A DNA stretch of 64,000 bases from Candidatus Omnitrophica bacterium UBA6215 (GCA_002421665.1 DISH01000004.1:381900-445899), one strand, 5' to 3'. Shown: positions 13,740 through 52,489, numbered from the stretch's first letter. Program-made: numbers and translations. Notes: generated by a model from the letters alone, not told the origin.

Positions 13740-13767
13740 TAAATGGAATTTTAAGGGGGGGATCGAA

Positions 13768-24029: not shown

Positions 24030-24030
24030 T

Positions 24031-24600
24031 ATGATATTGATGATAGATAACTATGATTCTTTCACTTATAATCTCGTCCAGTACTTCGGGGAGATGGGCG
24101 CATCGCTGAAAGTCATCAGGAACGACAAGATATCGCTCAGGGAAATAGCGGGCATGAAACCGGATGGTATAGTGATCTCGCCCGGACCGGGGTTCCCTAA
24201 AGACGCGGGGATCTCGAACTCCGTTATAAAGGAATTTGCAGGAAAGATACCGTTGCTGGGAGTTTGTCTCGGACACCAATGCATAGGCGAAGTGTTCGGG
24301 GGCCGGGTGATCAAAGCAACACGGCCAATGCACGGGAAGACTTCAAAGATACATCACGACGGTAAAGGCATATTCAGGGGCCTGCCGAACCCTTTTGAGG
24401 CTATAAGGTACCATTCGCTTGTGGTCGAGCGCAAGTCCCTGCCGGAGTGCCTGGAAATAACCGCCCAGACCAAGGAAAAAGAGATAATGGGGCTCAAGCA
24501 CGGGAAATATCCGGTTTGGGGGGTGCAATTCCATCCGGAATCCATCCTTACGTCCGGCGGGAAGAAAATGCTGAAAAATTTTATGGAGCTTTCCCGATGA
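24031..24600 (+). CDS. trpG: anthranilate synthase component II (glutamine amidotransferase)
   Basis: [25 protein letters not shown] catalytic Cys, HPES. Confidence 0.9.
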
Positions 24601-25607
24601 TAAGAGAGGCTATCTCCAAACTCGTCAGGTCTGAAGACCTTACAAAAAAAGAGATCGAATTGACCATGGACGAGATCATGACGGGCCAGGCCCTGCCTGC
24701 GCAGATCTCATCGTTCCTTACCGCCATGAGGATGAAAGGCGAGACCATAGACGAGATAGCCGGCGCGGCAGGAGTAATGAGGAAGTATGCGACATATATA
24801 AGGACAAGGCATCCATGCGTCCTTGATACCTGCGGTACGGGAGGGGACGAGTCCCAAACATTCAATGTATCTACCGTCGCAGCTTTTGTTGCAGCCGGGG
24901 CCGGAGTCGCGGTCGCGAAACACGGTAACAAATCGGTCTCGTCAAAATGCGGCAGCGCGGACCTTCTTAACGCCCTTGGTGTAAATATCGACGTAAGCGA
25001 ACATATGGTATCCAGATGTCTCGATGAACTTGGCATAGGTTTCCTTTTCGCGCCGGCATTACATAAGGCAATGCGATATGCCATAGGCCCGCGCAAGGAG
25101 ATAGGCATACGTACCATATTCAATATTTTGGGTCCCCTGACGAACCCTGCGAAGGCCTCTTACCAGCTGCTTGGGGTTTACGATCATAAGCTGACCGAAC
25201 CCATAGCGCGGGCTCTGGGTAAATTGGGTTCCAGGCACGCATTGGTAGTCCACGGCGAGGACGGTCTCGACGAGGTCACGACAACGGATATAACGCAGGT
25301 ATCGGAACTAAAGAATGGGAAGGTAAAGAATTACGAGATCTCCCCTAAGCATTTCGGCATAAAGAAAGCAAAACCTGCAGACTTAAAAGGAGGCGACGCC
25401 GCCTATAATGCAAAGCTGGCGATGTCAATCCTCGGAGGGGAAACAGGCCCCCAATACGATATAGTGATATTTAACGCCGGTTGCGCAATTTATGCCGCAG
25501 ACAGGGCGCAAAGCATAAAAGAAGGCATAGAACTGGCTGGAGAATCCGTCGAGTCCGGAGAAGCCTTGAAAAAACTCGAACAGCTCAAGGAGGTGACTAA
25601 CTCATGA
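24597..25607 (+). CDS. trpD: anthranilate phosphoribosyltransferase
   Basis: MIREAISKL start with an ATGA overlap on trpG. GTGGD motif, KHGN. Confidence 0.9.
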
Positions 25608-26380
25608 TAACCCTCGATGAGATAATAGAACATAAAAAACATAAGTTGGAACGCTTACAGGAAACGCTTTCCCTGCCCGATATCGAAAAGAAAGCCTCAC
25701 CCGTAAAGAACAGGGGTTTTAAAGCCGCGATATCCCGCGGCAACAGGGTGAACTTGGTAGCTGAAATAAAAAAAGCTTCGCCCTCGCACGGCATAATAAG
25801 GCATGATTTTGACCCGGTAAGCATAGCCTCCGTATACAAGGAAAGCGGAGCAAGCGCCCTTTCCATCCTGACGGAGGATAAATATTTCCAGGGCAGCCTG
25901 GAGATACTCTCCAATGTAAGAGATGCGGTAAATCTTCCGGTAATGCGCAAAGACTTCATAATATCGGAATACCAGATATTCGAATCGGCCATTGCGGGCG
26001 CAGACGCGGTTCTCCTTATTGCTGCAGCACTGGACAGGGGTATGCTCAAAGCGCTTTTACATGAGGCATCTTCCCTGGGAATGGAGACCATGGTCGAAGT
26101 CCATGACGAACGCGACCTTGATAAGGCCCTCGGCGCAGGCGCAGGCATAATAGGTATAAACAACCGCAACCTAAGGACCATGGAAGTAGATTTGGCCGCT
26201 ACCATCGAACTTATTCCAAAAATCCCGGATGGTAAAATAACCGTGTCGGAAAGCGGCATAAGGGAGCCTGAGGATATCAGGACCTTGTCCCAATACGGGA
26301 TAAAAGCGGTCCTTGTGGGCACTGCGTTCATGGAGGCGAATGATATTGCCTCAGAGGTCAAACGGGTGATGGATTGGTAA
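25604..26380 (+). CDS. trpC: indole-3-glycerol phosphate synthase
   Basis: VAEIKKASPS.G.I, LSILTEDKYFQGS, NNRNL motifs. Confidence 0.93.
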   Translation: MITLDEIIEHKKHKLERLQETLSLPDIEKKASPVKNRGFKAAISRGNRVNLVAEIKKASPSHGIIRHDFDPVSIASVYKESGASALSILTEDKYFQGSLEILSNVRDAVNLPVMRKDFIISEYQIFESAIAGADAVLLIAAALDRGMLKALLHEASSLGMETMVEVHDERDLDKALGAGAGIIGINNRNLRTMEVDLAATIELIPKIPDGKITVSESGIREPEDIRTLSQYGIKAVLVGTAFMEANDIASEVKRVMDW

Positions 26381-27006
26381 GAGTAAAGATATGCGGGATC
26401 ACTAATCTTACCGACGCCCAAGCCGCGTGCAGGCTTGGGGCCGATGCTATCGGTTTTATATTTACGGAGAGTCCGAGGAGGGTGAACGCCGCAAAAGTAA
26501 GGGCTATATCGGCAAAACTCCCTCCTTATGTCACTACGGTCGGGGTATTCGCCGATGAAAAAATGTCTAATGTCTTAAGGATGGCAAAAAAATGCAGGCT
26601 CGACTGTCTCCAACTGCACGGAGATGAACCGCCGGACTATTGCAGGAAGCTTAAGAAGTATTATAAAATAATAAAAGTGATAAGGGTAAAAGATGCAGGG
26701 AGCATAAACGAGGCAAGGAGTACGGATGCCGATGCGTTCCTGCTTGATGCATATATTAGCGGGAAGAAAGGCGGCACAGGAACGGTTTTTGACTGGAAAT
26801 TGGTTTCCAGGGCTAAAAGATTGGGGAAGCCTGTCATATTATCGGGCGGTTTGAATCCCGGGAACATCCGGAAGGCCGTAAAGCGGTCAAGACCTTACGC
26901 CGTCGATGTCTCCAGCGGCGTGGAAACCCGGCCCGGAAAAAAAGATATAATGCTTATGGGTGATTTCATCAGGAAAGTAAGGTCGGACAACTCAGGAAAG
27001 GAATGA
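26374..27006 (+). CDS. trpF: phosphoribosylanthranilate isomerase
   Basis: MVRVKICGIT...ADAIGFIF...LLD...GGTG. Confidence 0.9.
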   Translation: MVRVKICGITNLTDAQAACRLGADAIGFIFTESPRRVNAAKVRAISAKLPPYVTTVGVFADEKMSNVLRMAKKCRLDCLQLHGDEPPDYCRKLKKYYKIIKVIRVKDAGSINEARSTDADAFLLDAYISGKKGGTGTVFDWKLVSRAKRLGKPVILSGGLNPGNIRKAVKRSRPYAVDVSSGVETRPGKKDIMLMGDFIRKVRSDNSGKE

Positions 27007-28414: not shown

Positions 28415-30400
28415 ATGATCCTGCCGAGCGGTCTGTTCGCCAACAAGGACCCGGTCGCAGAAGAAGGGTTCTCCTGTTCCCGTACTTTCGGAAAAGGAGG
28501 AATACTTTCAAAGGTTTTCCGGGATTATGAGTTCAGGCCGCAGCAGAAAGAGATGGCCGAATCCGTGGAAAGGGCAATCCGGGCAGCCCGCCATCTTATT
28601 GTCGAGGCCGGCACCGGGGTCGGAAAATCGTTCGCATATCTTGTGCCCGCGGCTGATTTTGCTATAAACTCAGGCAGGAAAACCGTCATATCTACCGATA
28701 CCATCAGCCTGCAGGAGCAGCTTGTAAGAAAAGACCTTCCTCTTGTTTCGAGGATACTTCCGGACGAATTTAAGTTCTGCCTGGTGAAGGGCCGGTCCAA
28801 TTATCTTTGCCTTAGGAGGCTCAACAGGGTCTTCTCCTCGAAGAATGACCTCTTCGATTCAAAACAGGAGGCCGGGGAGGTGGGTGATATACTCGCGTGG
28901 TCAAAAGTCACTACTGACGGCTCCCTATCGGACTTTGCCGCTGAACCTTCGCGCAAGGTATGGGAAAAAGTATGTTGCGAACACGATACCTGCCTGAGCA
29001 AGAAATGTCCGCACAGGAACGAATGTTTCCTTATGCAAGCCCGCCGGAACATGCAGGAATCCGACCTGATAGTCGTGAACCATCACCTGTTCTTCTCCGA
29101 CCTGGCTCTGCGCAAATCCGACTGGGCCCTGCTGCCTGATTATTCATGCGTGATATTCGATGAGGCCCATACCATCGAGGATGTCGCGACAGAACATCTG
29201 GGCTTTGAGGTATCTAATTACAAAGTAAAATATCTTTTGGACTCCCTTTACAACCCCTCAAAAAAGAAAGGGTTCCTTGTATCGGTAAAGAATAGCTCTC
29301 TTAAAAGAACGGTAACTGCTGTCCGTGAAGCTTCGGAAAATTTCTTCGCGGATATCTCGGATTGGCTTGGCGCCTACGGCGTAAAAAGGGTAAGGGAACC
29401 GGGTTTTATAGATGACACGCTATCCGGACCCATGAAAGAACTTTACGAAAGCCTTAAAAAGGCCATGAAAGGTTCCCGCTCCAAGGATGAAGAACTGGAT
29501 TTCAGGTACTATATGAATAGGCTGGAAGGATTATCCCAGGAATTGGAGATCTTCATGGACCAGAAATTGGGAGATTATGTTTATTGGTCCGAAGTATCGG
29601 GCAGCAGGTCCCGCAGGACGGCGCTCGATTGCGCTCCGGTCAATATAGCCGCGGCTCTAAGGGAAAACCTTTTCTCGAAGACAGGGACCGTGATCCTTAC
29701 AAGCGCTACCCTGTCAACCGAAGGTAATTTTGAATATATAAAGGGCAGGCTCGGCCTCGATAAGTGCTCGGAAAAACTGCTCGGTTCGCCGTTCGATTAT
29801 GAGAATAACGTCAAGATATACATTCCCAGGAACATGCCGGACCCTAACGATTATGCAAAATACAAGACGGAGGCCGTAGCCAGGATAAAGGACTATGTAT
29901 CAAGGACCGAAGGCAGGGCATTCGTCCTTTTTACCAGTTACAGGTTTATGGACGATGCCTATAATGAGACGGCTGATTTTTTCGAGAATATGGGCATCCC
30001 GATACTTAAACAGGGCGCCGGTTTGCCCAGGACGAAGATGTTGGAAGCCTTCAAGCGGGACAAGGGCTCCGTGATATTCGGGGTGGACTCTTTCTGGACA
30101 GGCGTGGACGTACCCGGTGAAGCCCTCAGCAACGTAATAATAACAAAACTTCCTTTTGCCGTGCCTGACCACCCCATATCGGAAGCCAGGATGGAAAGGA
30201 TAAAGGAGGCGGGGGGAGATCCCTTCAACATGTACAGCCTCCCGCAGGCGATACTCAAGCTCAAACAGGGTTTCGGGAGGCTTATCCGCACGAAACTCGA
30301 TACCGGCATGGTCGTCATACTCGACAGCAGGATACTCCACAAACCTTACGGAAGAAAGTTTTTGTCGGCGCTGCCTAATTGTGAGATAATAATCCAATGA
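28415..30400 (+). CDS. dinG: ATP-dependent DNA helicase, DinG/Rad3 (XPD) family with Fe-S cluster
   Basis: Walker A GTGVGKS, DEAH box (VIFDEAHTIED), four-Cys Fe-S insertion (CCEHDTCLSKKCPHRNEC) and helicase C_2 domain. Confidence 0.85.
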   Translation: MILPSGLFANKDPVAEEGFSCSRTFGKGGILSKVFRDYEFRPQQKEMAESVERAIRAARHLIVEAGTGVGKSFAYLVPAADFAINSGRKTVISTDTISLQEQLVRKDLPLVSRILPDEFKFCLVKGRSNYLCLRRLNRVFSSKNDLFDSKQEAGEVGDILAWSKVTTDGSLSDFAAEPSRKVWEKVCCEHDTCLSKKCPHRNECFLMQARRNMQESDLIVVNHHLFFSDLALRKSDWALLPDYSCVIFDEAHTIEDVATEHLGFEVSNYKVKYLLDSLYNPSKKKGFLVSVKNSSLKRTVTAVREASENFFADISDWLGAYGVKRVREPGFIDDTLSGPMKELYESLKKAMKGSRSKDEELDFRYYMNRLEGLSQELEIFMDQKLGDYVYWSEVSGSRSRRTALDCAPVNIAAALRENLFSKTGTVILTSATLSTEGNFEYIKGRLGLDKCSEKLLGSPFDYENNVKIYIPRNMPDPNDYAKYKTEAVARIKDYVSRTEGRAFVLFTSYRFMDDAYNETADFFENMGIPILKQGAGLPRTKMLEAFKRDKGSVIFGVDSFWTGVDVPGEALSNVIITKLPFAVPDHPISEARMERIKEAGGDPFNMYSLPQAILKLKQGFGRLIRTKLDTGMVVILDSRILHKPYGRKFLSALPNCEIIIQ

Positions 30401-32295
30401 TGAAGAAACACGGCGGGATAATTATAGGGCTCATTTGCGCTGTTGCCATAGCCATACCTTACTTCCTGGGGTTTTTTGAGCTTGCGGAATACCAGGGACT
30501 CGATCTCCTGTTCAAGGTACGCGGGCCAAGGCAGGTCAGCCAGGATATAGTTATCGTGGAAATAGACGACAGGGCAATAAATGATTTCGGCCGGTGGCCG
30601 TGGCCGAGAGGCTATCACGCCGAGTTCCTGGACATGATAGAAGAATTCGAGCCGAAAGCCGTCGTCTTTGATATCCTTTTCAGCGAAAAAGATGCGGAAC
30701 ACCCTGATGATGACATGCAGCTCGCTGCTATGACGAAGAAGCTGGGGAACGTATTCTTCGCCTCGTTCTTTGACTTAAGCAGTGACAAAGTTGCCAAGAG
30801 AAAGAACCTCAGGGCCCATAAGGAAACTATACCTTTCAAGATTCTGGCGGATAACGCCAGGGGATTCGGCTTCGTGAATATACTGGTGGAACCCGACGGG
30901 AAAGTAAGGAAAATACCTCTTTTTATCTCGCGTGACGGGCAGCTCAAACCCTCGATAGACATTCTTGCCGCCTCATATTTCACGGAATCGGACCCTTTTA
31001 AGCTATACGCCCCGACTGACGGAAAAGGGTTTATGTGGATCAATTATCCCGGGTCATTCGACCTTTTCAAGAAAATATCCTTCTCTGATATACCCATATC
31101 CATAGATCAGATGGAAAGAGGGGAGGAACCCGCCTTAAACCTCAATATACTCAAGGGAAAGATAGTCCTCGTTGGTTTAACCTCTACGGCATCAGAGGAT
31201 TACTGGTCGACATCTTTCTCGGCCCTATACCCCGGGGTAGGCATAAGAGCAAGCTCTATCGATACCATGCTCAGGAAAGATTATCTTTACCGCATATTCG
31301 TACCGGAGGTATGCCTTATTATCGTGGCTATAGGCCTGGCATTCGGTATCGTACTTCCGAAACGTACTCCCATGCAGGGGCTCATCTTCTTCTTTGTGAT
31401 TATTGCCGGAGTATCTGCCCTTGCAATAATAGATTTTGCGTTTTTTAACATCTGGATGGATTTTGTGTCGATAATCATCCTTTGCTTAATAGCCTATCCT
31501 GCCATAACCTTGAACCAATTCATAATAACCCGGTTCGAAAAAGGTATGATCGAGAAGGAACTGCAGATAGCCAGCCGTATACAGCAATCCATATTGCCGC
31601 AGGGCCTGCCACAGGTCCCCGGAGTGGATGTCGGCGTCAAATGCATGCCCGCGAAACATGTAGGAGGGGATTTTTACGATTTCATCAAGCTCTTCTATGA
31701 TTTTGTAAAGTTAAAAGAGGACAGGCTGGGGGTAGTAATAGGCGATGTCTCCGGCAAAGGCGTTCCTGCCGCTCTTTTTATGGCAAAATCCATGGCGGAT
31801 TTCAGAGGCATTTCCCATAATTTTAACGAAACTGACCGGGCGCTTTCCGCCATAAACGACAGGCTTACGGAAGAAGGTGTTTCAGGCATGTTCGTGACTA
31901 TGCAGTACCTGATCTATAAACCCCGGGAACGCAAGATAGAATATTCAAACGGAGGGCATAACCCGCTGGTAAAAGTAGACGCCGCAGGCAATGCCTTCCT
32001 CTTGACCCTGTCCGTGGGTACCCCTATAGGCATAATACCGGGATCTGATTTTACCTCAGACGAATTTCCGGTAGCAGCTGGAGAGCTTTTCCTGATGTAT
32101 ACTGACGGCATTTCTGAGGCAAGGGACAAGAACGGCAAGGAGTTTGGCGAAGACAGGATATTGGAAAGCGCCAAAAAATACAGGAATGGCAAAGCGCAGG
32201 AAATTGCAGATAAAATAGTAGCGGATGTCGTAGAATTCAGCAGGGGGATGCCCCAGCACGACGATATGACGGTAATCGCGCTGAAGATATTATGA
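30397..32295 (+). CDS. CHASE2 sensor domain / PP2C (SpoIIE-type) serine phosphatase membrane protein
   Basis: N-terminal TM + CHASE2 (IVIVEIDDRAINDFGRWPWPRGYHAEFL), central multi-TM block, C-terminal PP2C domain (GDFYDF, VVIGDVSGKGVPAALFMA, MYTDGISEA, HDDMTVIAL). Confidence 0.75.
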   Translation: MMKKHGGIIIGLICAVAIAIPYFLGFFELAEYQGLDLLFKVRGPRQVSQDIVIVEIDDRAINDFGRWPWPRGYHAEFLDMIEEFEPKAVVFDILFSEKDAEHPDDDMQLAAMTKKLGNVFFASFFDLSSDKVAKRKNLRAHKETIPFKILADNARGFGFVNILVEPDGKVRKIPLFISRDGQLKPSIDILAASYFTESDPFKLYAPTDGKGFMWINYPGSFDLFKKISFSDIPISIDQMERGEEPALNLNILKGKIVLVGLTSTASEDYWSTSFSALYPGVGIRASSIDTMLRKDYLYRIFVPEVCLIIVAIGLAFGIVLPKRTPMQGLIFFFVIIAGVSALAIIDFAFFNIWMDFVSIIILCLIAYPAITLNQFIITRFEKGMIEKELQIASRIQQSILPQGLPQVPGVDVGVKCMPAKHVGGDFYDFIKLFYDFVKLKEDRLGVVIGDVSGKGVPAALFMAKSMADFRGISHNFNETDRALSAINDRLTEEGVSGMFVTMQYLIYKPRERKIEYSNGGHNPLVKVDAAGNAFLLTLSVGTPIGIIPGSDFTSDEFPVAAGELFLMYTDGISEARDKNGKEFGEDRILESAKKYRNGKAQEIADKIVADVVEFSRGMPQHDDMTVIALKIL

Positions 32296-32808
32296 GAGAT
32301 GCCTTCTTTTTATCAAACGCCTCGCGCCAAGAACGGATCCGCCCGCGACAAAAAGAATTGTGCTGATCGGCTCGGGGACGGAAGTGGGGGAGCCCGCGAT
32401 ATTGAACCAGGTCGAACCTTCACCTGAATCAAGGACCTGGGAAGACCCTATCCTAAAATAATACCAATCGGCGTCAATTGTCCATTTACCCGCGTTCGAA
32501 GGGTCGGACCAGTCGTAAGTACCCGACAAGTCTATCCAGTATGTTTGCTTGAGCCCGTAGCTGCTATCTTCCGCTTTTAGCGAAGAACCCAGGTACCAAT
32601 CTGATTCAACCCTTGATGTCCAATAACCTTCCGGAGCTTCGGGAAGTTTAACATATAAATAGGGAATCTCCCCGAGCTTAAAATCCCAGTTAGGTTCGGT
32701 AGCCATCTCGCTCTTAACCGGATAGATCACTATCCCGCTGTCGGCGAAAGATATGCAGGGGAAAAGAAAAAACATAACCGCTACTGCGCTTATCAAGATC
32801 TTATTCAT
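32290..32808 (-). CDS. small secreted aromatic-rich protein with C-terminal PEP-CTERM sorting signal
   Basis: Signal peptide. C-terminus VPEP-ISTILFVAGGSVLGA-RRLIKRR matches PEP, a hydrophobic span and an Arg-rich tail. Mature part is W/Y/D/S-rich. Confidence 0.6.
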   Translation of the reverse strand: MNKILISAVAVMFFLFPCISFADSGIVIYPVKSEMATEPNWDFKLGEIPYLYVKLPEAPEGYWTSRVESDWYLGSSLKAEDSSYGLKQTYWIDLSGTYDWSDPSNAGKWTIDADWYYFRIGSSQVLDSGEGSTWFNIAGSPTSVPEPISTILFVAGGSVLGARRLIKRRHLS

Positions 32809-32865: not shown

Positions 32866-32890
32866 ATGTCAAGTTATTTTACCTTGACAT
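32866..32890. promoter_or_regulatory. palindromic operator-like site ATGTCAAG-(9 nt)-CTTGACAT overlapping the -35 box. A third TGTCAA half-site lies at 32897-32902.
   Basis: Perfect 8-bp inverted repeat read directly from the sequence, in the divergent intergenic region between the PEP-CTERM gene and the TPR-barrel gene. Confidence 0.45.
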
Positions 32891-32912
32891 AATATATGTC
32901 AAATGATATACT
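32884..32912 (+). promoter_or_regulatory. sigma70 promoter TTGACA, 17 nt spacer, TATACT, driving the TPR-barrel / giant protein / SurA-N-like cassette
   Basis: TTGACA at 32884-32889 and TATACT at 32907-32912, ~75 nt upstream of the ATG at 32986. Confidence 0.5.
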
Positions 32913-32985
32913 TATCACATTGTAAATCAAACTTCTGATATCTTCTTTAAAAACAAACCTAAGTTAACCAAAAGGGGTTCCCGTA

Positions 32986-34503
32986 ATGCCGGTAAGGTCC
33001 AAGTCTACGGTGGTAGTTTTGGTAATTTTGTCAACGCTTTTTTCCATTATCCCTCTACAACAGGCCTGTTGCGAAACAAATCCCGACATAGAACAAGGTG
33101 TAAAACTTTACAGGCAGGAAAATTTTGATGAAGCTGTGCCCATATTACAAAAGGCCAGGAAAGAAAACCCCGATTCCTCGCTGGCCGCGTATTACCTGGG
33201 TATTACTTACAAGCAGCTTCAGGATTACAGGCAGGCCAGATCACAGCTCATTGACGCCGTCACGCTTACTCCCCGTATAAAAGAAGCTTTGGTCGAGCTG
33301 ATAGATGTAATGTACCAGCTGGGGGATTTCAAGGGAGCGAAAGAATATATTGAAATTGCAGAGAGGGAAAATATCAAACCTGCGCAGGTTGCTTTCCTTA
33401 AAGGCCTTGTCCTCCTGAAAGACGGAGAGGCAGCCGATGCCATAACAGCTTTCGAACAGGCAAAAGGCCTGGATAACTCCTTAACCCAGGCCGCTGATTA
33501 CCAAATCGGCATCGCGAATTTAAAAGAAAAGAATTATAAGGACGCCAAGAAGGTTTTCCAGGAGATAATAATACTCGATCCTAATTCCGACCTCGCGGGC
33601 CTGTCATATGAATATATGGATGCCCTGAAGCGCAAGGAGGAGGCCGAGAGGCCGTTCAGGGCCACGCTTAACGTCTCGGGCCAATACGACACTAATGTAT
33701 TGCTGAAGCCGGGAGACGATACCGTAGCTACCGGGATAACCAATGAAAGCGACTGGAGGGAAGTAACTAATTTCATGGGCCAATACAGGCAGAAGATCGG
33801 AGAAAAATTCGGCATAGACAGCCAGTATTCGATGTACTGGGCCCACCAGAACAAGATCGGCGCGTACGATGTCATGAGCCATACCGTGACGGTAACGCCC
33901 AACTATTACATAAAGAACGGGACTATCGGTGTGGCTGCCGGCTACAACTACACTGATGTCGGAGAATCCAAATATATGACTACTATTACCGCCAGCCCGG
34001 TCGTTAACTACGTTATCAGGAATAACCATATGCTTCAGGCGAATTTCAAGTACCAGAAGAAAGATTTCGCAAGGGAATCTTTCATTGACGATGAGAACAG
34101 GGATTCCAATGATTATGGCGGAGGTTTGGGCTATTTCTTTTTCTTTGCCCAGAACAAGGGTTTCTTCGGGCTGCACTATGGTTTAAATAAGGAAGATACC
34201 AAAGGGCGGAACTGGGAGTATCTCGGCAACAGGATCACCGCCACGGCATTGATACCTTTCCTTAAGAAATTCAGATTGAGTCTCGCCGGCGATGTTTTAC
34301 TCCAGGATTTCTCCAACACGAACAGTATATTTAATGTTAAACGTAATGATGAGACCTATACGGCATCTTCCATGCTCGGTTATACATTTTGGAAAGAGGC
34401 GGAACTGCAGTTCAGGTATACGTACATAAAGGACCATTCAAATATAAAAGTATATGATTATGACAGAAGCATCTACAGCGTTGGGATCGAGTATAAATTT
34501 TAA
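32986..34503 (+). CDS. outer-membrane protein with N-terminal TPR domain and C-terminal beta-barrel (Slam/DUF560-like architecture)
   Basis: Signal peptide, ~190 aa of TPR-like repeats (AAYYLGITYKQLQDYRQA..., VAFLKGLVLLKDGEAADAITAFEQA...), then ~290 aa of amphipathic beta strands ending in the canonical OMP beta-signal (IYSVGIEYKF, alternating hydrophobics, terminal Phe). Confidence 0.6.
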   Translation: MPVRSKSTVVVLVILSTLFSIIPLQQACCETNPDIEQGVKLYRQENFDEAVPILQKARKENPDSSLAAYYLGITYKQLQDYRQARSQLIDAVTLTPRIKEALVELIDVMYQLGDFKGAKEYIEIAERENIKPAQVAFLKGLVLLKDGEAADAITAFEQAKGLDNSLTQAADYQIGIANLKEKNYKDAKKVFQEIIILDPNSDLAGLSYEYMDALKRKEEAERPFRATLNVSGQYDTNVLLKPGDDTVATGITNESDWREVTNFMGQYRQKIGEKFGIDSQYSMYWAHQNKIGAYDVMSHTVTVTPNYYIKNGTIGVAAGYNYTDVGESKYMTTITASPVVNYVIRNNHMLQANFKYQKKDFARESFIDDENRDSNDYGGGLGYFFFFAQNKGFFGLHYGLNKEDTKGRNWEYLGNRITATALIPFLKKFRLSLAGDVLLQDFSNTNSIFNVKRNDETYTASSMLGYTFWKEAELQFRYTYIKDHSNIKVYDYDRSIYSVGIEYKF

Positions 34504-34520
34504 CAGAGGAGACGCCTGAT

Positions 34521-37500
34521 ATGAAGAAATTTTGCGTAAAACTACTGGCCCTGGTAACGGTAATGGGAGGGATATTCCTTACCTGTTCACCGTATTCTCT
34601 CGCGGATGTTATCGGAAAAATATCCGCTACCGAGGGAAGGGTTGACCTGTTGAAATCCGGCGGCGATACCGCCTCCGAAGTCAGGGTCGGTGATTGCGTA
34701 TCCTCAGGGGACATACTAAGGACCAAGAGCGGATCCAAGGCGGAGATCGCCTTTACCGATACGTCCGTAGTCAGGTTATCCGAAAACACCAGGCTGGAGA
34801 TCACAGATTACGGTTTTGGTCCAGGCGGAAAAAGAGCTGACGCTGCCCTTTTTCTTGATAGGGGCAAGATCAGAGCTATACTCTCAAGATCAGCGGAAGG
34901 GAGCTTCGTGATCAACACCCCTAACGCTGCCGGAGCGGTAAAAGGTACGGATATAGTGGCGATATACCAGAGGTCTTCGACCTCAATCGCCGCGCTCAAC
35001 GGCAAAGTTTTGGTCTCAGGAATGTCACCCTCAGGTAAACCGGTTGAACTGACAAGCGGTCAAACATCCGTAATCTCCGGAGAGACAGCTCCAAGCGCGC
35101 CCAGAATACTGCTTTCCATGGAGATTAAAGCGCACGAATCAGATACGGGAATATCCAAAGGATCTATGGCGGCGGAAAAATCTTCCGATGATAAGATGAC
35201 TGCTGAAGGTTATAGCGCACCCGATGGTATGAAAGCCGTAGTAACAAAAACCGCCGGCGGCGTAAGGATAAAGAACCGCGGATCAATAACGTGGCATGAC
35301 GCCAGAGAAAATGAAGTCCTCGCCGCGGGTGATTCCGTAGAAACTAAGGATAACGGAAAGATAGAGATAAGACTTGAGAACGGTAACGTAATAACATTGC
35401 AGCAGAACTCCAGCCTTATAATTCAAAAACTTTCATCCGACAGCAAGACCGGCAATTACGAGAACCTTCTTGAGTCCGGCGGCGGAAAACTCCGGGCCCA
35501 GGTACAGAAGATAAAGGGCAATTCGAAGTTCGAGGTCAAGACCCCTAATGCAGTTGCTTGCGTTCGCGGTACGATAATGTACCTGAACATATTACCTGGC
35601 CTGACAAACTCATATTTCGAAGAAGGCAACGGAACGCTTCGAAATCTAATCTCGGGGACAGTAAAAGACGTCCCTATCGGAACGGGCGCTGCCGCGGACG
35701 GCAATGGTAATATATCGGACCCGGTCCCGCCAAGCGATGACCAGAAATCGCAATGGCACCAGGGTTGGGATGTCGGCGGTGAAGCCGAAGGCTATTCAGC
35801 TCCTTCCGGGGACTTGGGTCAGGGCGGCGACTCAGACAACAACAGCGGAGATACAGGTTTCCAGAACGTCGTTTTCGACGAAAAACCGGTAACGGATATT
35901 ATCGGCACTACGGAGAGCGGGGGCGGTCCGGGCGGCAGCGAAGGCGAAGGGGGCATAACTAACCCCTATATAACAGGAACTTCATCCGGCAGTTTCGGGT
36001 TCGTCGAACCGGACGAGTATAATAATTTTGACGCTGTTCTCTCCAGCAACACCGTATTATCTTCGCCGTGGGCCGGGCAACTCGATCTTCACGTAAGCGG
36101 CGAATTCATGAGTCCGGGATACAGGATATTCGAAGGCAATATCACCGCTGCGAGCGTTGATGGAGGTACGTCCTTCGGATGGGTAGGCGGCATAATGCAC
36201 AGTTGGGAAGGAATATTATCTTCTATATATATAGATCCTTCCGGCAGGGCAGGCAACCTGTTCGGGTATTTATCCGGTACGAACACCGTAGAAACCGGGA
36301 CCGGATCCTATTACGGCGATTTCTCGGGCAGCGGTGATATTTTTGTTATCCAGATGGCTCAATTAGAGGCTGGCATCGAGTATCCGGTAGAATACGGTGA
36401 AGGATATGGTGACCTGCGCTTGGCTTTCAATAACGGGAACGGCTTGTTCTACGCTGATTTCGACAGGCAGCTGGCCAGGATAGAGGGACAGGATTGGGGG
36501 ATCTGGAGGGATGCTTACCGCGGGAGTTATTATAATCCGGATAATTTGAATGAATGGATCGGAAATGCAGGCGGCCGTTACGGAGAAAAAGGTTATTTCT
36601 TCGCGACTGTCGAAGGCATTGACGATCTTGAGGGCGGAGTCAGGATGGACATGACCGGCGCCTATCTGGATATGTATACGCTTGGGGCATACTACGGCTC
36701 TATTCTCGCCGGCTATGGAGAAGGAACGGAAGGAATCGGGTTGGGCGGATATACTGAAGAAGCCCTTACCTCCAGCGCAATACACGGAAACTACAGTTAT
36801 TCGGGACAATTAAGCGGCATTTTAGGCACTACAGGCTCGCTTTGGTCTGGCAGTCCGTTCTATCTGACATCCATAGGCAATCTTGAGGATGAGTACGATG
36901 GCGAATTTGATAATTTTATATGGTATACCGATTTCATAAGCACCGACAACGATAACGAAAGATATACGGCCTACTCGGCGGAAGAAGGAATAGGCTCTTA
37001 CTACGGCACTACCTCAGGCGTAGGCAAAGACAACACCATGAAGGGGTTCAGCAGGTTCATCTATATAGATCCCTCCGGGTATGCCGGAGTATTCAAGGGA
37101 AGTGTTGACGGCGCTTATTCGCAGGCAATAGGCATGTATATTTTTGACGGAAAGGCCGCAAGAGATACCTCGGTGGATCCAGTGTTTGTAAGCCTGTCCC
37201 CGGAAGCCCTCAACTATTCCATATGGCTTAATTCCGGCGAAGGTAACCTTGAGGGTTATTATTCGGATGGAGGGCGCGTATATGGTTATGACAACCTCTA
37301 TTCAGCCTCAATCGCCGATTTCGGGAACGGGACAGCCCAGAACTGGGGTATTTATAACCAGCGGATAATCGGACAATCCTACATGGAACTCGCGGACGAC
37401 TTTTCCGCTAAGATGGGCGGCAAAGACAGTTTTGGTTGTTATAATCCTACGATAATGCACTATAATACATATAATTCCGGCGACGGGGCCTCTTATAGCT

Positions 37501-40500
37501 GCGAATATTCGGAAAATAACAGGTACGGGTATTCTTACAGGTACGAACCGGGCCCGGACACATATAAGTATACCTATACTTATTATTACGCGGACGGCAC
37601 AACATACACGAACACATGCATTTATGACAGCGGCTGGAATTACCTTTCCGGCGACGGGGTATATGATACTTGGGATACTTCATCTTCTTTAGCGGACCTG
37701 TTAAGCGCGGCACCGGAAGGCTACAGCCTTTCATCTGAAAGCTCATATTCTTATGCCGAAAATGATTACGGCTTTTGGATAGCCGATGTGAACGCTTCCG
37801 GAAGCGATTGGTTTGACGGGACTCTTAACGGCGCGTTCATTACATATACAAAGATGGGCCTGATGCAGGGTGATCTCACCGGTTCATATACAGATGATAC
37901 CGGCGGGTGGATAGCCGCCGGCTCAGGCACTTGGAATGGCAACCGGCTTACCATGAGCGGCATGTGGGGTGAGGACACAAGTAGTCTGTACGAGAACAGT
38001 TACGGATATCCGTCCTTAGCCGGTGAAGAATACGGGCTTCTCGGCTCTACGGTCGAGGAGTGGTGGAATAAAACCTCTTTCCCTGTATTGGCGATGGGCA
38101 GATACTATTCTTACGGCACGGACGATCAGCCTATAATCTGGATAACACCGTTCAACAGCTATAACGCCGAGATGGATAACCATACCTCTCTCGACGGTTC
38201 AGCGTTCTACGGTCTTACCGCGGGCATATGGAAAGACGGCTTGATGTCGGACGCAAAGGCTGTTGCAATATACGCTGCCCCGGATGGAAGTATGGGTATA
38301 ATCAAGGGAAACCTTGGCGGAGAATACTATCCGGGTCTGGATATGTGGATGGCAACCGGATCTTTGTCCGCCCTGCAAAAAAGCGGAGAATCAATAGACC
38401 CGGCATCCCTTTACGAGAGTATAACTACCTCGGATATGCCGTATTTATACGCCGGGGGTTCGATTGATGGAGCGGTCGTTTACGGTGAATCTTCCGACGG
38501 ATACTTATATTCAGTCGACGAAGGTCAGTGGGGCATATTTGATTTCAAGACCGGCGGCAACTATAACGACGAATGGGTTGAATCCAAAGAGAAGGGCCTT
38601 GCCTTCGGATTCACGGACGGTCTTTACGGGCCTTCCATGCTCCTGACATCGACCGACGCGTCCGTCGGTGACGGTACCATCGCCGGCACTCTTTCCGGAT
38701 CTTGCATAGACCTTCTCGAAGGAACTATAAGCAAGCTGAACGGCGATATCCGCGGAATTTACGACAGCGATAATAATACCTGGATCGCCGCGGCCATCGG
38801 CGAATGGGAAAAGAAATTACTCGCCTACAGCGGTGTCGTAATGGAAGGCGGGTTCGGTTATTTTTACGGCGAAAACGAAGGACCTTATCTGGATGACGGC
38901 GGGCTTGACGCGATAATGGGCGGCTCCGACGACCTCTTTGACGGTTCAGCCGAGATCTCGATAGTCGGGAACGCGTGGAACCCGGACTACAATGAGGATT
39001 GGACGGGCGACGATAAGCTGTGGGCAGGCGATTTCTTCATAACTACCGACGATAACGCCGCAGCCACGGGTACGATAGGAGGTACCAGCCTGAACAACAG
39101 CTTCAAAGGCGCTTTGCTTGGTCTGTACATCCGCCAGACGCAGGACGGTTACAAAGCAGGATATATAACTTCTTCCGACGCCTTCGGGAACCGCGACTTC
39201 CTTTCGGGGAATTTCTATCCGTCATTATCAATGTTCAGCGCCGAAGGCAGCCTAACGGCTTTCATGGATACTCCTACGGAATTCACGCCGGAAGATATAC
39301 TTTTTGGCAATGAATCCGCTTTGCTGAGCGATGACTTCTATGACCCGATCGTCGGGGACCTCAACGGCGACCTTTACGGTGAGGACCTCCAGATAGCGGA
39401 CCAACAGTGGGGAGTCTGGCGCGCGGGATGCGGCGGTTGGCTCGATTCCGTCCCGGCCGGCAATTGGAATTCTTACATAGCCGAAAGCTTTGAAGACCAA
39501 TACGGGGAATATTCGTTCCCGTATTATTCACTCATCTATATCGACGGAACCACTACCGCGGACAACGGGCTTGAGGCCGTTATACACGGTTACGACCTCG
39601 GTATGACATACCTAAGCGAGGCTTCGGGGTTGATGGCCGGCGATTATGATACCGGCGAGATGAGATGGGAAGGCCTTAGTTTGGGGACTTGGGTTGAGAA
39701 GGAATTAACTCTCAGCGGACTCGCCTCCGGGGGAATAAGAGCCGCCGGAGACTGGGATAACTGGTTTGACCCGGGCGACAGTTATGAAGACTTCTCCGGA
39801 GAATTCTCCGGTATAATAGGATCTACGCAGACCGGATGGCAGGACGGAAGTTTTAAGGCCGTAGCAATGGGTGATTATGCGATCAACGAGTCCGCCAATT
39901 CATACCTGCTCAACGCTGAAATGGGAAGTTTTAATGCACGCGAGATATCTCCGGTTACCCTCGACGGGGAAGGTGCTTTCTACGGGTTTGCCCACGCGGC
40001 TGTCGGAGATTCTGCCGATGGCAGGCTGACGGATACCGCTTCGGGATTGAGGCTGGCCGCCATATATATAGCTTCTAACGGGACCGGCGGCTATAATGCG
40101 GGAGTGCTAAGGGGCGGGCTTGACATGGATCTAGTGGAGATCCCCTACGACGGTGAAGTCGGCATGTGGATAGCCGAAGGCTACCTGACCCCTTACGCAA
40201 TGGAAACCGATATCGGCATCTCTCCGGAAGAACTACCGGATTATATATCCTGGGACTGGGAAGTGCTCGGTGCTTCGGGTGTCGGCTCGTTCTCAAACGG
40301 CGGCGCCATCCAGGCCGATTACTTTACCGGGGACACGATGTCCATAGAAGGCTACGACCAGTGGGGGATAATGCAGGCTGCCCTTACCGGACAAACATCC
40401 TCGGTCGTAGATTCGGATTGGAGATTGGCCTTGGGAGGCGCTTCTTATACCGACGATTCGCATGAGATTGCGGACGGTTATTTCCTTATCTCGGCCGGCG

Positions 40501-41126
40501 GAGATTCCTGGTCGAACAACGTATTTGACGGGACCTTCAGGGGCGTATACTTGAGCGAGATAGACGAAAATACCTTTAACGTCGGAAAGATAGAAGGTGA
40601 TGTCGTAGGCAATTACCAGCAGGTTGAAGGGGTAGATACCGTCTTCCAGGCACAGATGCTCGGAGAATGGGTAGATCTTGCGGAATTGAGCACGGATGTG
40701 CTTGGATTCAATAACGATGCGTTAGCCGAGATGGTCCAGATACCCGTCACGGAAACCTATACAGCGCTTCTGCAGGGTGCCGGCGGATTCGGACCCGCCG
40801 GGGATATCGGGGCTATAACATCCAATATGGACATAAGCTTCTATGCCCAGCAGGCAACCGACCTCAGCGGCATATGGGCTGCCCTGATAAACGGGAACTA
40901 CTCCGGGTATACCGGAAGCGACAATTGGTCTGTCAATTATTCCAATAACGGCGTTAACGCCACGCTTACGGGTACGCAGTGGAATGACGGACAATGGCTC
41001 GCGAACGTATCCGGAAATAACGGAAATTCTACATTTACCGGACAGGCGGGCGGCACCTATACCGGCACAGACAGCGGTACTTTTGATGGTGCAGGCGCCG
41101 GGACATGGAACACCCCGACTCCGTAA
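34521..41126 (+). CDS. giant (2201 aa) secreted protein with tandem N-terminal FecR domains and a ~1700-aa Gly/Tyr/Asp/Ser/Thr/Trp-rich degenerate-repeat region
   Basis: Sec signal (cleavage after SLA). First FecR-like domain at ~aa 35-160 (...FVINTPNAAGAVKGTDI) and second at ~aa 245-360 (...FEVKTPNAVACVRGTIMYL). The rest has extreme composition, almost no K or R, and recurring IYIDPSG.G..G and (Q/D)WG(I/V)(W/F) motifs. SD GAGGAG 7 nt upstream, 17 nt after the upstream gene. Confidence 0.7.
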   Translation: MKKFCVKLLALVTVMGGIFLTCSPYSLADVIGKISATEGRVDLLKSGGDTASEVRVGDCVSSGDILRTKSGSKAEIAFTDTSVVRLSENTRLEITDYGFGPGGKRADAALFLDRGKIRAILSRSAEGSFVINTPNAAGAVKGTDIVAIYQRSSTSIAALNGKVLVSGMSPSGKPVELTSGQTSVISGETAPSAPRILLSMEIKAHESDTGISKGSMAAEKSSDDKMTAEGYSAPDGMKAVVTKTAGGVRIKNRGSITWHDARENEVLAAGDSVETKDNGKIEIRLENGNVITLQQNSSLIIQKLSSDSKTGNYENLLESGGGKLRAQVQKIKGNSKFEVKTPNAVACVRGTIMYLNILPGLTNSYFEEGNGTLRNLISGTVKDVPIGTGAAADGNGNISDPVPPSDDQKSQWHQGWDVGGEAEGYSAPSGDLGQGGDSDNNSGDTGFQNVVFDEKPVTDIIGTTESGGGPGGSEGEGGITNPYITGTSSGSFGFVEPDEYNNFDAVLSSNTVLSSPWAGQLDLHVSGEFMSPGYRIFEGNITAASVDGGTSFGWVGGIMHSWEGILSSIYIDPSGRAGNLFGYLSGTNTVETGTGSYYGDFSGSGDIFVIQMAQLEAGIEYPVEYGEGYGDLRLAFNNGNGLFYADFDRQLARIEGQDWGIWRDAYRGSYYNPDNLNEWIGNAGGRYGEKGYFFATVEGIDDLEGGVRMDMTGAYLDMYTLGAYYGSILAGYGEGTEGIGLGGYTEEALTSSAIHGNYSYSGQLSGILGTTGSLWSGSPFYLTSIGNLEDEYDGEFDNFIWYTDFISTDNDNERYTAYSAEEGIGSYYGTTSGVGKDNTMKGFSRFIYIDPSGYAGVFKGSVDGAYSQAIGMYIFDGKAARDTSVDPVFVSLSPEALNYSIWLNSGEGNLEGYYSDGGRVYGYDNLYSASIADFGNGTAQNWGIYNQRIIGQSYMELADDFSAKMGGKDSFGCYNPTIMHYNTYNSGDGASYSCEYSENNRYGYSYRYEPGPDTYKYTYTYYYADGTTYTNTCIYDSGWNYLSGDGVYDTWDTSSSLADLLSAAPEGYSLSSESSYSYAENDYGFWIADVNASGSDWFDGTLNGAFITYTKMGLMQGDLTGSYTDDTGGWIAAGSGTWNGNRLTMSGMWGEDTSSLYENSYGYPSLAGEEYGLLGSTVEEWWNKTSFPVLAMGRYYSYGTDDQPIIWITPFNSYNAEMDNHTSLDGSAFYGLTAGIWKDGLMSDAKAVAIYAAPDGSMGIIKGNLGGEYYPGLDMWMATGSLSALQKSGESIDPASLYESITTSDMPYLYAGGSIDGAVVYGESSDGYLYSVDEGQWGIFDFKTGGNYNDEWVESKEKGLAFGFTDGLYGPSMLLTSTDASVGDGTIAGTLSGSCIDLLEGTISKLNGDIRGIYDSDNNTWIAAAIGEWEKKLLAYSGVVMEGGFGYFYGENEGPYLDDGGLDAIMGGSDDLFDGSAEISIVGNAWNPDYNEDWTGDDKLWAGDFFITTDDNAAATGTIGGTSLNNSFKGALLGLYIRQTQDGYKAGYITSSDAFGNRDFLSGNFYPSLSMFSAEGSLTAFMDTPTEFTPEDILFGNESALLSDDFYDPIVGDLNGDLYGEDLQIADQQWGVWRAGCGGWLDSVPAGNWNSYIAESFEDQYGEYSFPYYSLIYIDGTTTADNGLEAVIHGYDLGMTYLSEASGLMAGDYDTGEMRWEGLSLGTWVEKELTLSGLASGGIRAAGDWDNWFDPGDSYEDFSGEFSGIIGSTQTGWQDGSFKAVAMGDYAINESANSYLLNAEMGSFNAREISPVTLDGEGAFYGFAHAAVGDSADGRLTDTASGLRLAAIYIASNGTGGYNAGVLRGGLDMDLVEIPYDGEVGMWIAEGYLTPYAMETDIGISPEELPDYISWDWEVLGASGVGSFSNGGAIQADYFTGDTMSIEGYDQWGIMQAALTGQTSSVVDSDWRLALGGASYTDDSHEIADGYFLISAGGDSWSNNVFDGTFRGVYLSEIDENTFNVGKIEGDVVGNYQQVEGVDTVFQAQMLGEWVDLAELSTDVLGFNNDALAEMVQIPVTETYTALLQGAGGFGPAGDIGAITSNMDISFYAQQATDLSGIWAALINGNYSGYTGSDNWSVNYSNNGVNATLTGTQWNDGQWLANVSGNNGNSTFTGQAGGTYTGTDSGTFDGAGAGTWNTPTP
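36140..41090 (+). repeat. in-frame degenerate protein-level tandem repeat (about 6 units of ~250-350 aa) inside the giant ORF
   Basis: Module A copies: SIYIDPSGRAGNLFGY, FIYIDPSGYAGVFKGS, AIYAAPDGSMGIIKGN, SLIYIDGTTTADNG, AAIYIASNGTGGYNAG. Module B copies: QDWGIWRDAYRG, QNWGIYNQRIIG, GQWGIFDFKTGG, QQWGVWRAGCGG, DQWGIMQAALTG, LSGIWAALINGN. They alternate at roughly regular spacing. Confidence 0.4.
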
Positions 41127-41416
41127 TGATACGTTATATAGCCCTGGTGTCAATTCTGGCTATTTTATTTCCCGGTTGCGGGAAGCCGGCCGCTAATCCG
41201 GCTTCCGCGCAGCCCGCGCCAAGGGTGCTCGCGACGGTTAACGGCGAACCTATATCCGATAAAGACCTGAAACTTTCCCTTGCCATACGCCTTATGGATG
41301 ATCCAGATTTCAAGGTAACTCCTTCCACTAAGAACGAACAGATACAGATGATCATCGACGAACGCCTGGAACTGCAGCGCAAGGACAGGGCTTCTTCGGA
41401 CATTAAGATATTCTGA
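41126..41416 (+). CDS. small lipoprotein/periplasmic protein with SurA N-terminal-like chaperone motif
   Basis: Start codon overlaps the giant ORF stop (TAATG). Signal MIRYIALVSILAILFPGC followed by VLATVNGEPISDKDLKLSLAIRL..., resembling the SurA/PpiD N-terminal domain. Only ~96 aa. Confidence 0.45.
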   Translation: MIRYIALVSILAILFPGCGKPAANPASAQPAPRVLATVNGEPISDKDLKLSLAIRLMDDPDFKVTPSTKNEQIQMIIDERLELQRKDRASSDIKIF

Positions 41417-41509: not shown

Positions 41510-42700
41510 GTGAAACTGCCCGATAAGAAAGGCCATTTCGGCGTTTTCGGAGGAAAGTATGTCCCGGAAACCCTGATGGCGGCCCTGGAAGAGCTTGAGG
41601 CGGAATATTCCGCCGCTAAAAACAACAGAAGGTTTGCCGAGAAATTCCGTTATTACCTGGAAGCATACGCCGGCAGGCCGAGCGGTCTTTATTTTGCCGA
41701 AAAATTGACCAAAACCCTTAAGGGCCCAAAAATATACCTGAAGAGGGAAGACCTGCTGCATACCGGTTCCCATAAAATAAACAATACCCTGGGCCAAGGT
41801 CTGCTTACCGTACGCATGGGGAAGAAAAGGATAATTGCCGAAACCGGCGCCGGACAGCACGGCGTAGCCACCGCGACCGTAGCGGCTCTCTTCGACCTTG
41901 ATTGCGAGGTATTTATGGGAGAAGAAGACATTCGCCGGCAGGCCCTTAACGTCTTCAGGATGAAACTCCTGGGCGCGAAAGTCACTCCGGTCACAAGCGG
42001 CAGCAAGACGCTGAAGGACGCTATGAACGAAACGATGAGGGACTGGGTCACTAATGTGCGCGCCACCCATTATTGCATCGGATCGGTCGCCGGGCCGCAT
42101 CCGTTCCCAATGATGGTAAGGGATTTCCAGTCGGTTATCGGAAAAGAGACGCGGCGCCAAATACTAAAAGCAGAAGGCAGGCTCCCCGACTATCTTATTG
42201 CCTGCGTGGGAGGCGGGTCTAATTCCATGGGGCTCTTCTATGATTTCCTTGACGACAGGAAGGTTAATTTTATAGGGGTTGAGGCCGCGGGCAAGGGCTT
42301 GAATACAGGCCTGCACGCAGCCACTCTGGAAAAGGGCGATATCGGCGTGCTCCACGGCAGTAAGAGTTATCTGCTGCAAGACGACTTTGGACAGATAAAG
42401 ATAGCGCACTCGGTATCCGCCGGGCTGGATTATCCCGGAGTAGGCCCGGAACACTCATTTTTCAAGGACGCGGGCAGGGCAAAGTATGTATCGGCCACGG
42501 ACACGGAGGCATTGGAAGCTTTCCGTCTTCTTTCAGAGACTGAAGGTATAATACCGGCCCTTGAGTCGTCGCACGCCATAGCTTACCTCATAAAAGCGGC
42601 CAAAAAGATGAAAAAAAGCGACCTTGCGGTAGTCTGCTTGTCGGGCAGGGGCGATAAGGACGTGGACATGGTCTCGCAGGTCCTCGCAGACAAAATATGA
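41510..42700 (+). CDS. trpB: tryptophan synthase beta chain
   Basis: GTG start. [14 protein letters not shown] and [12 protein letters not shown]-lysine motif. GGGSNS. Confidence 0.95.
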
Positions 42701-43494
42701 ACAGAATAGATAAGAAATTCTCCGATCTCAGGAAAAACGGCAGGAAGGCCCTTATAGCCTTCTTTACGGCAGGTGACTTCGGGCTCACGGCCACGAAAAA
42801 ATTCGTCATTGAATTCGAACAGAGGGGCGTAGATATCATTGAGCTGGGCGTCCCTTTTTCGGACCCCGTTGCTGACGGACCTACTATACAGTCTTCCTCT
42901 GAAAGGTCCCTGAAAAGGGGCACAAGGCTCAAGGACATAATATCCCTCGTCGGGCAACTGCGAAAGAAAACCCAGATACCCATAGTCCTGATGGGTTACT
43001 ATAACCCTATACTCAAATACGGCCCCGCCAGGTTCATTTCAGACTGCGTAAAGAACGGCGTTGACGGTGCGATAATCCCTGATCTGCCCCCCGAAGAATC
43101 TGGTGAATTGACGGCGGCGGCAAAAGGCAGGAATTTCGACATAATATTCTTCCTGAGCCCGACAAGCTCCCTCAAGAGGATAAAGATGGTCTCCGGGATG
43201 ACCAGGGGTTTTATCTACTACGTTTCCCTTACGGGAATCACCGGGGCAAGGTCTTCATTGCCCGCCGGGTTCGCTGCACGAGTAAAGTTGATAAAAAAAA
43301 CCTCCGATAAACCGGTGTGTGTCGGTTTTGGAGTCTCGATGCCGGAACAGGCAAAGCGCATCAGCGCCGTAGCTGACGGTGTTATCGTGGGTTCGGCTAT
43401 AGTAAAACAGATGGAAAAGAATTCCTCGAATAAGAAGTTCGTAAAGAATGTAGGCAATTATGTCCATAAACTTGCGGAGGCTACCCATCAATAA
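42697..43494 (+). CDS. trpA: tryptophan synthase alpha chain
   Basis: ATGA overlap with trpB. TrpA motifs ([30 protein letters not shown]). Confidence 0.93.
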
Positions 43495-52466: not shown

Positions 52467-52489
52467 CTTTTTTTGCGGGAGAAACTCAA

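Follow-up and report, generated by a model that had tools for sequence, protein, structure and literature searches.

A Slam-like porin and its giant FecR-domain partner beside a CHASE2 receptor gene in Candidatus Omnitrophica bacterium UBA6215: a candidate envelope signalling module

We analyzed a 64,000-nt stretch of DNA from Candidatus Omnitrophica bacterium UBA6215 (GCA_002421665.1; hereafter, the window), in which positions 32,866 to 41,416 hold a cassette of three genes: an outer-membrane porin with an N-terminal tetratricopeptide repeat (TPR) domain (gene 1), a giant FecR-domain protein (gene 2), and a small SurA-N-type lipoprotein (gene 3). We found that the porin and the FecR protein form a near-invariant pair across many genomes, that the porin belongs to the wider kinship of the Slam translocons of the type 11 secretion system (T11SS), and that the pair recurs beside genes for CHASE2 membrane sensors. 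Because this widespread pair so often adjoins such sensors, its role is probably to connect the cell surface with signalling and not export alone. A reading made from the sequence alone had proposed a dedicated surface-export system, which is probably half of the story; it missed the signalling context, in that a CHASE2-PP2C gene lies directly upstream. In full, our model takes the cassette as the envelope part of a signalling module whose T11SS-like porin-partner pair feeds the CHASE2-PP2C sensor, and we give it an even chance of being correct. The genes of the cassette and their parts are as follows (all on the + strand).

32884-32912 (+): sigma-70-like promoter site, TTGACA-17-TATACT with an extended -10 TG, 11/12 consensus matches
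32986-34503 (+): gene 1, porin, 505 aa, open reading frame (ORF); signal peptide at aa 1 to about 29, periplasmic TPR domain at aa 33-220, predicted 14-strand beta-barrel with C-terminal YKF at aa 224-505
34521-41126 (+): gene 2, giant FecR protein, 2201 aa, ORF
34521-34604 (+): gene 2 signal peptide, aa 1-28, cleavage SLA/D, from the translation
34611-35588 (+): gene 2, two FecR-type domains, about aa 31-163 and 238-356 (FecR PF04773, E 3.2e-26, two stretches)
36147-40685 (+): gene 2, five diverged tandem all-beta modules of ~200-380 aa, from motifs and profiles (modules 1-5 at about aa 543-740, 743-1126, 1121-1417, 1412-1711, and 1711-2055)
40722-41120 (+): gene 2, conserved C-terminal domain, aa 2068-2200, eight predicted beta-strands
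41105/41126-41416 (+): gene 3, SurA-N lipoprotein, 103 or 96 aa depending on the start, ORF; the 96-aa form (41126-41416) has the lipobox LFPG/C and a predicted SurA-N-type chaperone segment only

The porin and its FecR-domain partner

Species-representative genomes were scanned with a profile of the gene 1 barrel, which returned 27 loci (27-93% identity), and the ORFs of these loci were then searched with the window proteins. The loci come from metagenome-assembled genomes (MAGs) labelled Omnitrophota, Deltaproteobacteria/Thermodesulfobacteriota, Nitrospinota, Nitrospirota, and Pseudomonadota; we cite them by handle (L010 and the like) where they need to be told apart. Of the 20 informative loci, 19 have a FecR gene after the porin gene on the same strand, amid flanking genes that are unrelated. 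The two are immediate neighbours in 18 of these, and in L021 the FecR gene lies 1.3 kb downstream, past two small ORFs. The sole exception is L015 (9338-11539), where a Crp-family cyclic-nucleotide-binding regulator comes directly after the porin and the contig ends soon after. Partner lengths range from 275 to 2,850 aa, with 631 aa in L024 and 944 aa in L019 among the shorter ones. Co-occurrence in other genomes had been named as a check on the cassette, and the porin-FecR pair is indeed conserved in many unrelated contexts. It is the pair, and not the triad first put forward as the unit, that forms the strictly conserved core, with homologues of gene 3 in a subset of loci only. Five loci (L016, L017, L018, L023, and L030) share the order porin, FecR protein, SurA_N protein, HAMP membrane protein, and a protein of ~165 aa.

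Two side observations concern partner composition. In L016, the region just upstream of the porin gene (7016-8910) encodes a further FecR protein of only 254 aa, along with a DUF7544 protein, in addition to the long FecR partner encoded downstream. In L027 (12601-14856) and L031 (11675-13498), the FecR partners are short (551 and 275 aa), and the next gene encodes an Ig-like/beta-sandwich repeat protein (He_PIG; CarboxypepD_reg, fn3, SdrD_B), which may be a separate surface component that replaces the fused modules. The L031 partner has neither the modules nor the C-terminal domain described below.

The architecture first described for gene 1, TPR followed by a C-terminal barrel, is borne out by a TPR domain (Pfam TPR repeats at aa 37-200) and a predicted barrel whose best matches are 14-strand barrels; Pfam also reports a marginal DUF2860 match in the C-terminal part (24.2 bits, cut-off 22.9). 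In an exhaustive search, the barrel profile retrieved 2,251 cluster representatives (E<=1e-3), almost all ~500 aa long and with a C-terminal barrel; their source names, where given, are only "tetratricopeptide repeat protein" or "TadD". Among 53 diverse relatives found by this profile, 23-45% identical to gene 1, SlipAM is matched by 27 (E<=0.01; best 1.9e-14), and TPR_Slam likewise by 27. One relative (P0168), a hit of the barrel profile at E 1.1e-43, covers the entire SlipAM model (positions 1-288 of 288) with 44.5 bits against a cut-off of 22, and another (P0185) reaches 35.3 bits on TPR_Slam, just over its cut-off of 35.2. Because relatives match SlipAM while gene 1 itself does not, we place gene 1, by transitive homology, as a divergent relative of the Slam/DUF560 (T11SS) superfamily and not as a direct member. 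The Slam/DUF560 assignment proposed earlier holds at this superfamily level and not as a direct Pfam match.

Gene 2 is, as far as its sequence and setting indicate, the obligate partner of the porin, and it is predicted to be exported by Sec. Its signal peptide lacks a lipobox, and a hydropathy scan found a sole hydrophobic segment at aa 2-24 and no internal transmembrane segment, in agreement with the Sec-secreted protein with two FecR domains that had been described. NCBIfam returns domain-level matches to the Leptospira FecR proteins Lsa33 and LipL45. The N-terminus also resembles the LapA retention module (retention_LapA) at a sub-threshold 39.6 bits (cut-off 50), and this sub-threshold similarity recurs in 7 of 10 partner proteins of other loci.

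The ~1700 aa in which no further domain had been recognized turned out to hold five tandem modules and a C-terminal domain; the absence of a known domain stands, in that neither has a sequence match in Pfam or the PDB. A motif pair, IYIDPSG and QxWGI, occurs in five regularly spaced copies that define five alignable segments, and a hidden Markov model built from module 3 orthologues detects the other four modules at independent E values from 5.7e-6 to 7.8e-29. BLASTP of gene 2 against itself gave no repeats at 1e-3, and the repeats are seen only via the motifs and orthologue-built profiles. The modules are rich in Gly, Ser, Asp, and Tyr and very acidic: Gly makes up 15.5%, Asp 8.5%, and Tyr 7.4% of the ~1,780 aa of gene 2 that remain beyond the FecR domains, where acidic residues number 252 and basic ones 57; the protein is of 230 kDa and has a net charge of about -195. 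Module number varies from 0 to about 7 among homologues. An AlphaFold2 model of aa 1711-2201, made from a shallow alignment of 9 sequences, is all-beta (predicted local distance difference test 76.9, predicted template modelling score 0.78), and a Foldseek search of the model against the PDB gave no significant match.

The C-terminal domain (~130 aa) was found in the partner proteins of all distant loci compared and lies at the extreme C-terminus of nearly all partners, at lengths from 551 to 2,850 aa. Its sequence resembles neither TbpBBD nor lipoprotein C. Between gene 2 and its counterpart in the closest relative (L010, 10885-16269), identity is 69%, and the counterpart is 407 aa shorter, with one module fewer; in the same comparison the porins are 91%, the CHASE2-PP2C proteins 94%, and the small lipoproteins 72% identical. 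Much faster evolution sets the giant protein apart from its neighbours, and the small lipoprotein is also fast-evolving. Exposure of the modules on the surface would fit their rapid divergence and their excess of acidic residues.

Gene 3 keeps the lipobox L-x-x-G-C-G and the motif ATVNGEPI..KDLK among its orthologues. Its own match to SurA_N_3 is weak (E 0.12; 12.7 bits, cut-off 27.2), as is that to the EpsD N-terminus (E 0.073). Distant loci encode homologues of 192-268 aa at the same position; those of L016 and L030, whose homology to gene 3 shows at E 1e-8 to 1e-12, attain the SurA_N_3 cut-off with 27.3 and 27.8 bits, and one longer homologue has a weak Rotamase_2 match. The conserved lipobox and these longer homologues support the SurA-N-type lipoprotein assignment made earlier. 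Gene 3 is a conserved short form and no pseudogene; L001, L003, L004, L007, L010, and L013 encode it at 93-104 aa.

The three genes are co-oriented, as had been stated, with a 17-nt junction that carries a GAGGAG ribosome-binding site between genes 1 and 2 and an overlapping TAATG between genes 2 and 3. The near-consensus promoter claimed upstream was likewise recovered, as a site that is promoter-like by consensus match. A strong antisense promoter-like site (TTGACA-16-TATCAT, 11/12 matches, 41153-41126, - strand) sits exactly at the gene 2/gene 3 junction.

CHASE2 receptors and the proposed mechanism

Upstream of the cassette lies the gene for a membrane receptor, which has a transmembrane helix at aa 4-31, a periplasmic CHASE2 domain at aa 32-295, ~3 transmembrane helices at aa 296-378, and a cytoplasmic PP2C domain at aa 441-631.

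30397-32295 (+): CHASE2-SpoIIE (PP2C phosphatase) membrane receptor (Pfam CHASE2 E 4.8e-50, SpoIIE E 2.7e-48)

Across the loci, a CHASE2 gene adjoins the pair in six different arrangements, with two output types.

Window group: CHASE2-PP2C, upstream of the pair; in L004, 80 nt before the porin gene on the same strand
L026: CHASE2-PP2C, upstream of the pair, with three genes between
L018: CHASE2-PP2C, downstream of the pair, followed by an RsbW-like kinase-STAS fusion
L019: CHASE2-adenylate cyclase, downstream of the pair
L029: CHASE2-adenylate cyclase, downstream of the pair, opposite strand
L024: CHASE2 fragment at the contig end, downstream of the pair

The L018 operon (8537-20079) encodes, in order, the porin, a FecR protein (1716 aa), a SurA_N protein (266 aa), a HAMP membrane protein, a 177-aa protein, a CHASE2-SpoIIE receptor, and an RsbW-like kinase-STAS fusion. 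Judged by gene content, it looks complete and would be the clearest example of the whole pathway. The window has no homologues of such accessory genes of the L018/L030 type (HAMP, ~165-aa protein, RsbW-STAS fusion).

Related gene groups have been reported, and the combination is not as undescribed as the sequence-only reading supposed. In Campylobacterota, a CHASE2 cyclase, a FecR protein, and a TPR protein are encoded in one cluster, for which the authors suggest a single pathway; they also refer to a published working model by which modules of the extracytoplasmic function (ECF) type control transmembrane cyclic AMP (cAMP) enzymes (PMC9239204). A Burkholderia operon encodes a response regulator, a LysM-FecR protein, a CHASE2 kinase, and a DUF4136 protein, and what CHASE2 domains sense is not known (PMC5192318). 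A further report describes Sinorhizobium meliloti CHASE2 cyclases as perceiving a plant protein via the outer-membrane barrel protein NsrA (PMC13001267).

Because the pair resembles a T11SS porin-cargo pair genetically and sits in CHASE2-centred signalling operons, we propose a mechanism of four steps. The gene 3 lipoprotein would keep the 230-kDa chain export-competent and escort it across the periplasm. The TPR domain and barrel of the porin would then engage the conserved C-terminal domain, and the modular acidic part would be placed on the cell surface, a step that we model on the handling of cargo with a C-terminal barrel by Slam/T11SS; the position of the domain at the extreme C-terminus of the partner matches the T11SS cargo rule (C-terminal barrel; PMC12282271). 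The folded N-terminal FecR domains would stay in the periplasm, in the manner of the LapA retention module, and would there make contact with the CHASE2 domain of the PP2C receptor whose gene precedes the cassette. Finally, surface events (contact, ligand, or module load) would alter PP2C activity and a STAS/anti-sigma partner switch. In a more specific version, which we think less likely than not, the cassette would encode an as yet unrecognized trans-envelope sensing device, with the T11SS-like porin threading a FecR protein whose FecR domains act both as periplasmic stopper and as CHASE2 ligand. The antenna of such a device, enlarged in Omnitrophota to 2,000-2,850 aa, would possibly serve contact with host or prey cells.

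Several observations weigh against this proposal. Gene 1 has no match to Pfam SlipAM (PF04575) at E<=1 and scores 19.1 bits on TPR_Slam, below the cut-off of 35.2, and its superfamily membership is a matter of transitive homology. Known T11SS cargo is fully translocated and surface-exposed (PMC12282271), and a protein held across the outer membrane would be without precedent in the T11SS family. No CHASE2 gene is present within the available flanks in 8 of the 14 contexts with usable flanks, and in the window an opposite-strand gene and a separate promoter-like site divide the CHASE2 gene from the cassette. Among close relatives, synteny spans the whole region, including the trp genes, and these loci are not independent evidence.

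Omnitrophota are regarded as nanobacteria that depend on hosts and would need adhesins, and the whole FecR protein could be a giant surface adhesin or coat exported by a plain T11SS-like route, with the neighbouring CHASE2 gene functionally unrelated. The Slam-superfamily porin and the near-invariant pairing suit this explanation, as do the domain-level matches to the Leptospira FecR-domain surface proteins Lsa33 and LipL45, the fast evolution and shifting module number, the 8 of 14 contexts without a CHASE2 gene in the available flanks, and the full surface exposure of known T11SS cargo (PMC12282271). Export alone would leave unexplained a CHASE2 gene beside the pair in six arrangements with two outputs, far above expectation for a receptor class of few copies per genome. 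Genes for HAMP, PP2C, RsbW-STAS, and Crp proteins share operons with the pair, and operons that encode FecR and CHASE2 proteins and no porin (PMC5192318) point to a periplasmic relationship between the two. We think that export alone is unlikely.

A second explanation keeps the signalling and drops the translocation: the porin would be an outer-membrane sensor or anchor, and a periplasmic FecR protein would bridge its TPR domain and the CHASE2 receptor, with FecA as the model for FecR and NsrA as that for the S. meliloti CHASE2 cyclases. FecR domains classically bind the periplasmic domain of an outer-membrane transducer (PMC5498481), and the published model of transmembrane cAMP enzymes under the control of ECF-type modules (PMC9239204) is in keeping with such a bridge, as is the short L031 partner (275 aa), which lacks the modules and the C-terminal domain. 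Against a purely periplasmic partner stand the homology of the porin family to Slam translocons, the conserved domain at the extreme C-terminus of the partner, as in T11SS cargo, and the nature of the protein itself: 230 kDa, a net charge of about -195, and fast-varying repeats would make an atypical adaptor for a very small cell. This explanation, too, appears improbable to us.

Two-partner secretion and a PgaA/BcsC-like TPR porin, both raised by the sequence-only reading, and three unrelated neighbours are together very improbable and largely refuted already: the predicted barrel has 14 strands, not 16 as in two-partner secretion or 16-18 as in the PgaA/BcsC type, with 14-strand barrels as its best matches, the porin lacks POTRA domains, gene 2 lacks a two-partner secretion or haemagglutination domain, the annotated neighbours include no polysaccharide synthase genes, and the pair is conserved across unrelated contexts.

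Neighbourhood of the cassette in the window

The cassette sits within a split trp operon, in the order trpEGDCF, PilZ protein, M48 peptidase, DinG-like helicase, CHASE2-SpoIIE, PEP-CTERM-like gene (- strand), cassette, and trpBA.

22551-27006: trpE, trpG, trpD, trpC, trpF
32290-32808 (-): 172-aa secreted protein with a PEP-CTERM-like C-terminus (VPEP, hydrophobic stretch, RRLIKRR), from the translation
41510-43494: trpB, trpA

The trp halves lie ~14.5 kb apart, and the layout is the same in all close Omnitrophota relatives (L001-L004, L006-L010, and L013). The best matches of the window proteins are from Candidatus Omnitrophota MAGs.

The PEP-CTERM-like gene, located between the CHASE2 gene and the cassette, encodes a protein rich in Trp, Tyr, and Asp for which a Pfam search returned zero matches. 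It is present in L001, L003, L006-L009, L012, and L014 (duplicated in L014) and absent from L004, L010, and L013; that it is part of the module is doubtful. We considered a PEP-CTERM/exosortase link as the main explanation for the cassette and rejected it: matches to PrsT, EpsL, and EpsD are far below their cut-offs, as expected from generic TPR, beta-signal, and SurA-N similarity, and the absence of the neighbour gene from the three loci just named also disfavours it. In L030, the gene for a subtilase with a PEP-CTERM motif separates the FecR gene from the SurA_N gene. A connection with exosortase sorting is possible.

Elsewhere in the window, a tRNA-Pro (GGG) gene at 52389-52465 overlaps the 5′ end of an ORF listed as 52421-53782, and because of this overlap the real start of the ORF is probably further downstream. 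GC skew is positive in all 2-kb windows of 1-64000, and the long ORFs are nearly all on the + strand, consistent with one replichore in which genes are co-oriented with replication.

Comparison with known systems

The cassette joins a T11SS-like pair to a CHASE2/FecR/TPR cluster, and with it come two protein modules not described before and, in Omnitrophota, a very large expansion of repeats. The two modules defined here, the ~300-aa repeat and the C-terminal domain, have no sequence match in Pfam or the PDB. From the locus we propose that CHASE2 receptors receive their input from a FecR-domain protein whose handling falls to a Slam-like porin; if this is true, events at the cell surface would be reported to CHASE2 domains by a partner protein. 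The proposal would also extend T11SS-like machinery well past Proteobacteria and past nutrient-capture cargo. A better description is gained for at least 2,251 protein clusters, a family whose source names, where found, read only "tetratricopeptide repeat protein", and the giant, fast-evolving, probably surface-located protein becomes a candidate for cell-cell contact in uncultured Omnitrophota nanobacteria.

By definition, the T11SS combines a DUF560 porin with cargo whose C-terminus forms an eight-strand barrel; it is presented as a system of Proteobacteria (PMC12282271). Compared with Neisseria Slam1/2, Xenorhabdus NilB, HrpB, and TepS, gene 1 has the same N-terminal periplasmic TPR domain and C-terminal 14-strand barrel, and its Sec-exported partner is likewise encoded beside the porin and combines a variable body with a conserved beta domain at the extreme C-terminus. 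Unlike these systems, gene 1 has no SlipAM match and its family is mostly found in MAGs not labelled Proteobacteria; the partner is a FecR-domain protein, not one of TbpB, hemophilin, or fHbp type; and signalling genes (CHASE2, HAMP, PP2C, STAS) share operons with the pair. The literature that we searched contained no work that treats DUF560 together with FecR, and the T11SS literature searched made no mention of CHASE2 or of such signalling operons.

The reported CHASE2 clusters (PMC9239204, PMC5192318) share with ours the encoding of CHASE2 receptor, FecR, and TPR types side by side. As in the Campylobacterota cluster (PMC9239204), the receptors of L019 and L029 are adenylate cyclases, and the proposed function is a single signal-transduction pathway. 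In the window, unlike in these clusters, the receptor output is PP2C. The TPR protein of the window is recognizable as a Slam-like barrel protein, and gene 2 is enlarged to 2201 aa by five modules and carries the undescribed C-terminal domain.

With FecA-FecR-FecI, the cassette has in common a periplasmic FecR-type domain, an outer-membrane barrel, and a signalling step at the inner membrane. In contrast to FecR itself, gene 2 has no cytoplasmic anti-sigma domain and no transmembrane helix, only a signal peptide, and the inner-membrane element is a separate CHASE2 receptor; among the neighbours annotated at 22.5-52.3 kb there is no ECF sigma factor and no TonB-dependent transducer. Gene 3 resembles SurA, PpiD, PrsA, and EpsD in its N-terminal chaperone segment with ATVNGEPI and differs from them in being only 96 aa long, predicted to be lipidated, and devoid of peptidyl-prolyl isomerase and C-terminal parts.

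LapA adhesins use a type 1 system, a TolC-like channel, and RTX repeats, none of which is present here. Gene 2 is like them a giant, acidic, repeat-built protein, with recurrent sub-threshold similarity to the retention module at its N-terminus, and LapA offers the conceptual precedent of a protein held across the outer membrane with its periplasmic N-terminal domain under regulatory control.

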